16,588 bases of DNA from a virus (lineage: Duplodnaviria > Heunggongvirae > Uroviricota > Caudoviricetes). Of the stretch, positions 11,314-14,727 are shown in pieces. The DNA lies in IMG/VR virus record IMGVR_UViG_2529293142_000008; one strand, given 5' to 3'. How positions within the stretch are numbered: the stretch's first letter is position 1; every line of letters starts with the position of its first letter. The translations under genes and the position numbers were made by a program. Below the pieces are notes generated by a model. It worked only from the letters and a program-made list of their open reading frames with translations. It was not told the origin of the DNA and did no database searches.

Positions 11314-14300
11314 ATGGGTAAAGGCAGCAGTAAGGGGCATACCCCGCGCGAAGCGAAGGATAACCTGAAATCCACGCAGTTACTGAGTGTGATCGATGCC
11401 ATCAGCGAAGGGCCGATAGAAGGTCCGGTGGATGGATTAAAAAGCGTGCTGCTGAACAGTACGCCGGTGCTGGATAGCGAAGGGAATACCAACATCGCCG
11501 GCGTCACGGTGGTGTTCCGGGCAGGTGAGCAGGAGCAGACACCGCCGGAGGGTTTTGAATCCTCCGGATCCGAGACGGTGCTGGGTACGGAAGTGAAATA
11601 TGACACGCCGATCACCCGGACCATCACGTCTGCAAACATCGACCGTCTGCGCTTTACCTTCGGTGTGCAGGCACTGGTGGAAACCACCTCAAAGGGGGAC
11701 CGGAATCCGTCGGAAGTCCGCCTGCTGGTTCAGATACAGCGTAACGGTGGCTGGGTGACGGAAAAAGACATCACCATTAAGGGCAAAACCACCTCGCAGT
11801 ATCTGGCCTCGGTGGTGGTGGATAACCTGCCGCCGCGCCCGTTCAATATCCGGATGCGCAGGATGACACCGGACAGCACCACAGACCAGCTGCAGAACAA
11901 AACGCTCTGGTCGTCATACACCGAAATCATCGATGTGAAACAGTGCTACCCGAACACGGCACTGGTCGGCGTGCAGGTGGATTCGGAGCAGTTCGGCAGC
12001 CAGCAGGTGAGCCGTAATTATCATCTTCGCGGGCGCATTCTGCAGGTGCCGTCAAACTATGATCCGGAAAAACGCACTTACAGCGGCATCTGGGACGGAA
12101 CGTTAAAACCGGCATACAGCAACAACATAGCCTGGTGTCTGTGGGATATGCTGACCCATCCGCGTTATGGCATGGGGAAACGTCTTGGTGCAGCGGATGT
12201 GGATAAATGGGCGCTGTATGTCATCGGCCAGTACTGCGACCAGTCGGTGCCGGACGGCTCTGGTGGCACGGAGCCGCGCATCACCTGTAATGCGTACCTG
12301 ACCACACAGCGCAAGGCGTGGGATGTGCTCAGTGATTTCTGCTCGGCGATGCGCTGTATGCCGGTATGGAACGGGCAGACGCTGACGTTCGTGCAGGACC
12401 GACCGTCGGATAAGGTGTGGACCTATAACCGCAGTAATGTGGTGATGCCGGATGATGGCGCGCCGTTCCGCTACAGCTTCAGCGCCCTGAAGGACCGCCA
12501 TAATGCCGTTGAGGTGAACTGGATTGACCCGGATAACGGCTGGGAAACGGCAACAGAGCTTGTGGAGGACACGCAGGCCATTGCCCGTTACGGTCGTAAC
12601 GTCACGAAGATGGATGCCTTTGGCTGTACCAGCCGGGGGCAGGCACACCGCGCCGGGCTGTGGCTGATTAAAACAGAACTGCTGGAAACGCAGACCGTGG
12701 ACTTCAGCGTGGGCGCAGAAGGGCTTCGCCATGTACCGGGCGATGTCATTGAAATCTGTGATGATGACTATGCCGGTATCAGCACCGGTGGGCGCGTGCT
12801 GGCGGTGAACAGCCAGACCCGGACGCTGACGCTCGACCGTGAAATCACGCTGCCATCCTCCGGTACCACGCTGATAAGCCTGGTTGACGGAAGTGGCAAT
12901 CCGGTCAGCGTGGAGGTTCAGTCCGTCACCGACGGCGTGAAGGTGAAAGTGAGCCGTGTTCCTGACGGTGTTGCTGAATACAGCGTGTGGGGGCTGAAGC
13001 TGCCGACGCTGCGCCAGCGCCTGTTCCGCTGCGTGAGTATCCGTGAGAACGATGACGGCACGTATGCCATCACCGCCGTGCAGCATGTACCGGAAAAAGA
13101 AGCCATCGTGGATAACGGGGCGCACTTTGACGGCGACCAGAGCGGCACGGTGAATGGTGTCACGCCGCCAGCGGTGCAGCACCTGACTGCCGAAGTCACC
13201 GCAGACAGCGGGGAGTATCAGGTACTGGCCCGCTGGGATACGCCGAAGGTGGTGAAGGGCGTGAGTTTCATGCTTCGCCTGACCGTGGCCGCGGATGACG
13301 GCAGTGAGCGGCTGGTCAGCACAGCCCGGACGGCGGAAACCACATACCGCTTCACACAACTGGCGCCGGGGAACTACAGGCTGACAGTCCGGGCAGTAAA
13401 TGCGTGGGGGCAGCAGGGCGATCCGGCATCGGTATCGTTCAGGATTGCCGCACCGGCAGCGCCGTCACAGATTGAGCTGACGCCGGGCTATTTTCAGATA
13501 ACCGCCACGCCGCATCTTGCGGTTTATGACCCGACGGTACAGTTTGAGTTCTGGTTCTCGGAAACGCGGATTACCGATATCAGGCAGGTTGAAACCACAG
13601 CCCGCTATCTTGGCACGGCGCTGTACTGGATAGCCGCCAGTATCAATATCAAACCGGACCATGATTATTATTTTTACATCCGCAGTGTGAACACCGTTGG
13701 CAAATCGGCATTTGTGGAGGCTGTTGGCCAGCCGAGTGATGATGCATCCGGCTATCTGGATTTTTTCAAAGGCCAGATAACCGAATCCCATCTCGGCAAG
13801 GAGCTGCTGGAAAAAGTCGACCTGACGGAGGATAACGCCAGCAGACTGGAGGAGTTTTCGAAAGAGTGGAAGGACGCCAACGATAAGTGGAATGCCATGT
13901 GGGCTGTCAAAATTGAGCAGACCAAAGACGGCAAACATTATGTCGCGGGTATTGGCCTCAGCATGGAGGACACGGAGGAAGGCAAACTGAGCCAGTTTCT
14001 GGTTGCCGCTAACCGTATCGCATTTATTGACCCGGCAAACGGGAATGAAACGCCGATGTTTGTGGCGCAGGGCAATCAGATATTCATGAACGACGTGTTC
14101 CTGAAGCGCCTGACGGCCCCCACCATTACCAGCGGTGGCAGTCCTCCGGTATTTTCCCTGACATCAGACGGAAAGCTGACCGCTAAAAATGCGGATATCA
14201 GTGGCAGTGTGAATGCGAACGCCGGGACGCTCAACAATGTCACGGTAAATGAAAACTGTACGATTAAGGGCATGCTGGAGGCGACTCAGGTCAGAGGTGA

Positions 14301-14727
14301 CTTCGTTAAAGCTGTATCCAAATCATTCCCGAAACAGGCTGGTACGTGGGGTAACACGGAAACACCAAACGGGACGGTTACAGTCACCATCAGTGATGAT
14401 CATAACTTTGACCGTCAAATCATTATTCCGCCCATTATCTTTAACGGAATAGCGTATAGCGATCCGGGAAGTGGTAATAACCCGGGAGGTACAAGATACA
14501 CGGGTTATGGTTTTGAAGTTCGCAAAAACGGTGTATTAATCGCATCCAGAGAAACTAAAGGGGCCATTCCCGGTAGCTACAGTGCGGTTATTGATATGCC
14601 GAGTGGCAGGGGAAGCGTCACTCTGGAGTTTAAGGTTTTCCATAAAGGCAATCAGTGGGCAGATAATATCACCGACTGTACGGTGATTGTGACCAAAAAA
14701 GCCGCTTCCGGCATCAGTATTCGTTGA
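11314..14727 (+). CDS. J: central tail fibre / host specificity protein J, with divergent C-terminal receptor-binding region
   Basis: ATG 11314 ([37 protein letters not shown]...), 1137 aa, intact. It is 5 aa longer than the 1132-aa lambda gpJ I remember, and the last roughly 150-200 aa read as related to it but clearly diverged. Confidence 0.93.

Follow-up and report, generated by a model that had tools for sequence, protein, structure and literature searches.

A phage 434-type (h434) specificity region on the lambda-like tail fibre protein J of a lambdoid phage window

We examined the tail fibre gene J in a 16.6-kb stretch of viral DNA (IMG/VR record IMGVR_UViG_2529293142_000008; 16,588 nucleotides, hereafter the window), which covers the morphogenesis region of a lambdoid phage or prophage; its left end holds the last part of the portal gene and its right end the first part of stf. 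J encodes a lambda-type central tail fibre that carries the phage 434 'h434' allele as its last 165 residues or so. By analogy with the genetics of 434 and lambda h434, the porin bound by this 434-type tip is probably OmpC and not LamB. The h434 allele, its use of OmpC as receptor and the exchange of J specificity regions as modules are already known and published, and the window is an ordinary further case. The parts of J referred to below are as follows.

11314..14727, + strand: gene J (tip attachment protein, central tail fibre), an open reading frame (ORF) translated into 1137 amino acids (aa), frame intact
11314..14233, + strand: J body shared with lambda, residues 1-973 (hub domains, FNIII domains, helical shaft, central straight fibre), from identity to lambda
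14024..14223, + strand: conserved fibre segment just 5' of the tip, from DNA identity across related phages
14234..14727, + strand: divergent specificity region of J, residues 974-1137, phage 434 type, from dense mismatches to lambda and a GC content (GC) of 0.47
14314..14721, + strand: Ig-like C-terminal receptor-binding domain (RBD), residues 1001-1136, from Pfam PF12421 (Ig_GpJ_C), AlphaFold2 and Foldseek

Comparison of J with lambda and phage 434

The window lines up collinearly with phage 434 at coordinates 4189-20779, and both 434 and lambda h434 imm21 match it over 100 % of its length at 96.6-96.7 % identity. J sits in a tail cluster with the order H, M, L, K, I, J, lom, stf, collinear with the 434 annotation. 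Its product contains six GpJ-specific Pfam domains in the order FNIII-A_GpJ, Phage-tail_3, Ig_J, Ig_J_second, Phage_Tail_Tip and Ig_GpJ_C, all scoring far over their cut-offs and forming the full series from the hub to the C-terminal RBD. Over the whole protein, J is 97 % identical to the J of phage 434 (OL657226 15505..18918, 1137 aa; the same J is found in lambda h434 imm21, OM418627) and 88 % identical to the J of lambda (NC_001416 15505..18903, 1132 aa).

Scored in blocks of 50 residues, the amino-acid identity to lambda J ranges over 0.88-1.00 as far as residue 950 and then falls to 0.74 (residues 951-1000), 0.42 (1001-1050), 0.30 (1051-1100) and 0.30 (1101-1137). In the DNA, mismatches to lambda are few up to position 14221 and dense from 14234, corresponding to codon 974, with an identity per 100 nucleotides (nt) of 0.85-0.99 in the J body and 0.43-0.65 in 14234..14727. 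An earlier note on this DNA, made from its letters alone, had described a body that reads like lambda gpJ followed by some 150-200 residues that differ, and the alignment agrees, with low identity over about the last 165 residues. That note placed the divergent stretch at 14120-14727; the divergence stands and the limits do not, as the stretch begins sharply at 14234, about 110 nt later, and continues past the J stop into lom.

The five residues by which J exceeds its lambda counterpart, also noticed earlier, are the net result of five indels at lambda positions 1011/1012 (+2), 1048/1049 (+6), about 1077 (+1), about 1100 (+2) and 1109-1114 (-6). Natural lineages of the specificity region have been reported to be marked by four indel hot spots, at lambda 1012, 1048/49, 1077/78 and 1107 (PMC6646904), and in our alignment the length differences of the J tip map to these four positions. 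The tip indels coincide with the loops holding lambda host-range residues 1012 and 1107, and the 6-residue deletion adjoins 1107. Both S1012 and D1107 of lambda J were needed for the laboratory gain of OmpF use (PMC6646904). The high identity to lambda J 960-1132, including the 1012 and 1107 loops, that marks a LamB-type tip was not found in the window J. Identity in the tip is 30-42 %, and the high lambda identity throughout the C-terminal domain that would have spoken against the earlier note did not occur.

Of the 177 residues from 961 to 1137, 166 (94 %) are the same in phage 434 J, with no indels between the two, and both proteins have the same indels relative to lambda. For the DNA of 14234..14727 the identity is 0.89-1.00 to 434, and 0.96-1.00 to the Shiga toxin 2c (Stx2c) phage, Perceval and cdtI. 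When the C-terminal region was aligned to the J proteins of phages with known receptors, the closest characterised one was that of 434 (OmpC). The likeness to 434 includes the length of J (1137 aa), its neighbours (terminator, 199-aa Lom, stf) and a tip of low GC, while the differences are 11 tip residues and a tip DNA identity of 89-91 % in 14224-14614. The earlier proposal of a foreign module with a receptor specificity other than that of lambda is therefore upheld by the 434 type of the tip, its low identity to lambda and the indels at the host-range loops. It did not recognise a long-known, named allele and it missed the part of the block that lies in lom.

The tip also differs in base composition. 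Residues 961-1137 are encoded with a GC of 0.474 and a GC at third codon positions (GC3) of 0.483, compared to 0.576 and 0.694 for residues 1-960, so that the higher AT content previously seen by eye in the tip DNA is confirmed. In sliding windows, the lowest-GC 528-nt stretch of the entire 16.6 kb begins at 14301, and merely 1.6 % of the 528-nt stretches in the window are as low in GC as 14200-14727. For comparison, the lambda J tip has a GC of 0.543 and a GC3 of 0.613, and the 434 J tip a GC of 0.479. Because the lambda tip is far less AT-rich, the drop in GC is a property of this 434-type module.

Tip structure, predicted receptor and alternatives

The Ig_GpJ_C family (PF12421), described as 'Tip attachment protein J, C-terminal receptor binding domain', matches J residues 1001-1136 with 91.8 bits against a cut-off of 26.2, over profile positions 1-134 of 135. 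An AlphaFold2 monomer model of residues 941-1137 is all-beta with a mean predicted local distance difference test (pLDDT) score of 83.2. The four best Foldseek matches of this model in the PDB are all gpJ tips, namely 8xcj (lambda, open with LamB), 8xck (lambda, closed), 9wca (A8, closed) and 9wcb (A8, open with EDL933 OmpC), with query-normalised template modelling (TM) scores of 0.62-0.63. These scores are lowered because the N-terminal fibre strands of the model make sense only in a trimer. The predicted fold is thus an Ig-like beta-sandwich of the kind known from solved gpJ tips.

The stretches of variable length between the model strands are residues 1010-1015, 1051-1058, 1081-1086 and 1112-1121, and they coincide with the four hot spots. 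From the model and the alignment, we infer that these four stretches are putative receptor-contact loops. Judging from the structures of lambda and A8, the distal tip would consist of three copies of the Ig-like C-terminal domain, as in lambda (PMC11101478), and the four bottom loops of this tip would go into the extracellular mouth of a trimeric outer-membrane porin. Porin binding would then open the tip outward, and the movement may be passed up the straight fibre so that the tail opens and the DNA is ejected. With loops of the 434 type, the porin recognised would be OmpC instead of LamB.

Two sets of solved tips can be compared with that of the window. The lambda RBD with LamB (8xcj, 8xck; PMC11101478) is the same up to about residue 970, belongs to the same Pfam domain (Foldseek E = 7.5e-17) and keeps, like the window tip, the motifs DDHxFDRQ and DMPxGxG; it differs in that the window tip is only 30-42 % identical and carries indels in each of the four loop regions by which lambda contacts LamB. 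The gpJ tips of A8 and 1A2 (PMC11338833; 9wca, 9wcb) come from E. coli prophages, have served in engineered lambda particles, belong to the same domain family and use OmpC, as expected here. A8 gpJ is the best sequence match among the solved structures (E = 1.9e-108). A8 and 1A2 share, however, only about 50 % identity with the window tip and differ from it in loop lengths, and we therefore regard them as separate specificity-region lineages. As the window tip is nearly identical to the tips of O157 Stx phages, we also considered that it might be identical with 1A2, an engineered tip with specificity for EDL933 OmpC; this was rejected, since the 1A2 and A8 sequences (PMC11338833 supplement) are about 50 % identical to it.

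The evidence that points to OmpC comes from 434 and lambda h434. Phage 434 is a classical lambdoid phage that uses OmpC (protein Ib). Lambda given the 434 J gene changes its receptor from LamB to OmpC (PMC3509688; PMC11101478, both citing Hantke 1978), and the origin of the h434 allele has been described (PMC9119081). For annotation, a phage with this J would be predicted to require OmpC and not LamB.

Several points weigh against a simple transfer of the 434 receptor to the window tip. Eleven tip residues differ from 434, several of them adjoining positions aligned to lambda host-range residues, and we found no experiment on this exact sub-allele in the literature. All 38 related representatives of the 434 type have G at position 1117, so that D1117 is private to the window. 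OmpC is highly polymorphic and J tips tell its alleles apart, as illustrated by 1A2, which uses EDL933 and not K-12 OmpC (PMC11338833). The receptor may thus be OmpC and the allele range nonetheless unlike that of 434. The putative loops were assigned by alignment and from a model of the monomer rather than from a complex. Frameshifts in four head and tail genes cast doubt on virion production by this copy. For the phages sharing the tip (Perceval, mEp phages, PhiR phages, Stx2c phage, cdtI), no receptor data were found in the literature.

The frameshifts are single-base indels relative to both 434 and lambda. They break four essential genes: D (head decoration; -A at 1845), E (major capsid; -A at 2644, splitting the gene into ORFs 1918..2871 and 2658..2969), U (tail terminator; +A at 4382, the deletion of which gives an intact U) and the T part of the tail chaperone G-T (-T at 6055). 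The fifth indel, at 9934, falls on the boundary between the L stop and the K start. They represent either sequencing errors or a decaying prophage, and if they are real this J copy is not in use. A 434-type J that is left unused in a defective prophage, with a specificity of no present consequence, would qualify the OmpC prediction rather than compete with it; we hold this to be possible, although we lean against it. The four broken genes favour such decay, as does the lack of an exact copy of the J protein or of the region in public collections: among complete E. coli genomes there is no exact copy of the window (best 96.3 %), and in the collections searched no gene encodes exactly this J protein. 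On the other side, the reading frames of J (3.4 kb) and H (2.5 kb) are unbroken, and sequencing or assembly errors explain the indels equally well, three of them lying in short A or T runs. With five indels in 16.6 kb, J would be intact by chance in about 1 of 3 cases, so its intact state argues neither way.

One further explanation keeps the fold and the porin class and shifts the specificity, such that this sub-allele (S1004, Q1008, A1009, S1049, R1099 and W1115, all shared with the Stx2c/Stx1a phages and Perceval, and the private D1117) sees other OmpC alleles or another porin such as OmpF. The 11 substitutions relative to 434 among 177 residues, at 970, 978, 980, 1004, 1008, 1009, 1019, 1049, 1099, 1115 and 1117, are clustered at the predicted bottom loops. 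Residues 1008 and 1009 are 3-4 positions from the residue aligned with lambda S1012, and residues 1115 and 1117 are 1-3 positions from the one aligned with lambda D1107. The same positions are repeatedly polymorphic among 434-type tips: the database representatives fall into two main haplotypes (in shorthand SQA/SD and AKV/DD), one with S1004/Q1008/A1009 and S1049 as in the window and the other with A/K/V and D1049 as in 434, and position 1115 is G, W or R. The tip has a single difference, D1117G, from the Stx2c/Stx1a phages (e.g. LC727876) and Perceval (OV696612), and three residues differ from cdtI.

Since other J tips discriminate OmpC alleles (PMC11338833), a shifted allele range is conceivable for the window tip as well, and single mutations in the J of phage 21 can add the use of OmpC or OmpF (PMC11336670). 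Against such a shift stand the 94 % identity to 434 without indels and a ratio of nonsynonymous to synonymous substitution (dN/dS) of about 0.1, a value that does not point to positive selection over the domain as a whole; the phenotype data for the two haplotypes are limited to 434 itself. Taken together, we consider a shifted specificity unlikely. If it were true, 434-type tips would comprise two host-range classes that differ in function, one for each main haplotype. Where engineered lambda particles are to be aimed at particular OmpC alleles, the differences among 434-type tips close to known host-range positions could help to select a suitable J tip.

Residue D1117 (14662-14664) lies in the predicted fourth receptor loop and adjoins the residue aligned with lambda D1107. 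It results from one G-to-A change, which is either a real variant or an error.

That the tip is still specific for LamB, its divergence reflecting drift or adaptation to LamB variants, is very improbable: it shares domain family and fold with the LamB-binding tip of lambda, and phage 21 is another lambdoid phage using LamB (PMC11336670), but its identity to lambda is down to 30-42 %, all four loop regions have indels, and the characterised J nearest to it (94 %) is that of 434, a gene that makes lambda use OmpC.

Module exchange and frequency in E. coli

The specificity region of J, residues 960-1132, has been described as an independent evolutionary module (Maddamsetti et al. 2018, PMC6646904). 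The window agrees with that description in the region concerned, in the indels at the hot spots and in movement independent of the rest of J, and we see no substantive difference. Near-identical tips are found in the Stx2c/Stx1a phages of E. coli O157 (e.g. LC727876), in Perceval (the strain LF82 prophage, OV696612) and in cdtI, with 96-100 % DNA identity from 14224 to the stop. The remainder of J differs from the window J in the Stx2c phage (5' half) and in cdtI (longer fibre). Compared to the window, the J gene of the Stx2c phage is 50-86 % identical in its first 1.8 kb (11314-13107), 93-100 % identical from about 13108 and 99-100 % identical in the tip. The J of cdtI has another fibre, 28 residues longer, at about 13806-14023, and is 96-100 % identical to the window from 14224 onward. 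A tip that is 99-100 % identical in Stx2c/Stx1a phages whose first half of J is 50-86 % identical bears out the earlier view of the tip as an exchangeable module of other origin. Relative to the window J, the J of the O157 Stx2c/Stx1a phages is a mosaic.

The segment just upstream, 14024-14223, is 93-100 % identical in DNA to lambda, 434, the Stx2c phage and Perceval and 85-93 % identical to cdtI, and the sequence flanking it varies among them. This conservation suggests that the segment is a likely left homology arm for module exchange. The 434-type allele was probably gained by homologous recombination between this left arm in the fibre and a right arm in the conserved 3' end of lom. Engineered J chimeras have been joined at lambda residue 964 (PMC11338833), and this junction coincides with a breakpoint in the window J.

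Relative to 434, the window DNA is 89-91 % identical across 14224-14614 and 97-100 % identical in both flanks, and this lower identity marks a distinct sub-allele, and a common one. Every part of J has a dN/dS of about 0.1 relative to 434, so the tip has been under purifying selection and has stayed functional. Positive selection between the window tip and the 434 tip is accordingly not supported at the level of the whole domain. The synonymous divergence (dS) is 0.30 in the tip compared to 0.14-0.15 in the body, so the lineage of the tip predates the sequence that now flanks it.

We counted matches over at least 80 % of the length of the 528-nt tip sequence in 5426 complete genomes. The 434-type tip was found in 2090 genomes and the corresponding lambda tip sequence in 96; the five top-ranked matches listed for the lambda-type tip are all laboratory K-12, B or DE3 strains. 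No other version of the tip is as common in E. coli as the 434 type, and it is lambda that stands out as the exception. A lambda-centred view is thereby corrected, the 434-type tip being about twenty times commoner than that of lambda in complete E. coli genomes.

lom and other features of the window

Two features follow J directly.

14746..14779, + strand: terminator-like hairpin (14746-14769) and T-run after J, at the position of an annotated terminator in phage 434
14797..15396, + strand: lom (Ail/Lom outer-membrane protein, 199 aa), Pfam Ail_Lom, 396.6 bits

The block that diverges from lambda passes the J stop and runs through the terminator and most of lom, and lambda homology returns at about 15325, for the last 70 nt of lom. 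The encoded protein shares 46 % identity with Lom of lambda and 95 % with that of 434, and for the lom type too lambda is the odd one out. Strict coupling of the lom type to the tip type was considered and rejected, as the 199-aa lom type is found in 162 phage records and the J tip type in 74.

A further terminator-like hairpin is found after lom at 15423-15444. The stf gene begins at 15461 and continues beyond the end of the window (15461-16588 within it). Its stretch contains a long antisense ORF, 15684..16544, resembling lambda orf206b, and positions 16100-16500 have a GC of 0.68-0.71 with a strong excess of A over T. Upstream of J, gene I has two compensating 3-nt indels relative to 434 within 12 nt (11067-11078), with the frame kept.

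In the body of J, residues 902-933 (14017-14112), including F924, are 100 % conserved with the corresponding lambda J peptide. This lambda peptide, including F924, has been reported as a trigger of the Gifsy-1 abortive-infection nuclease HepS (PMC13043305), and from its full conservation the window J is predicted to be a HepS trigger as well.

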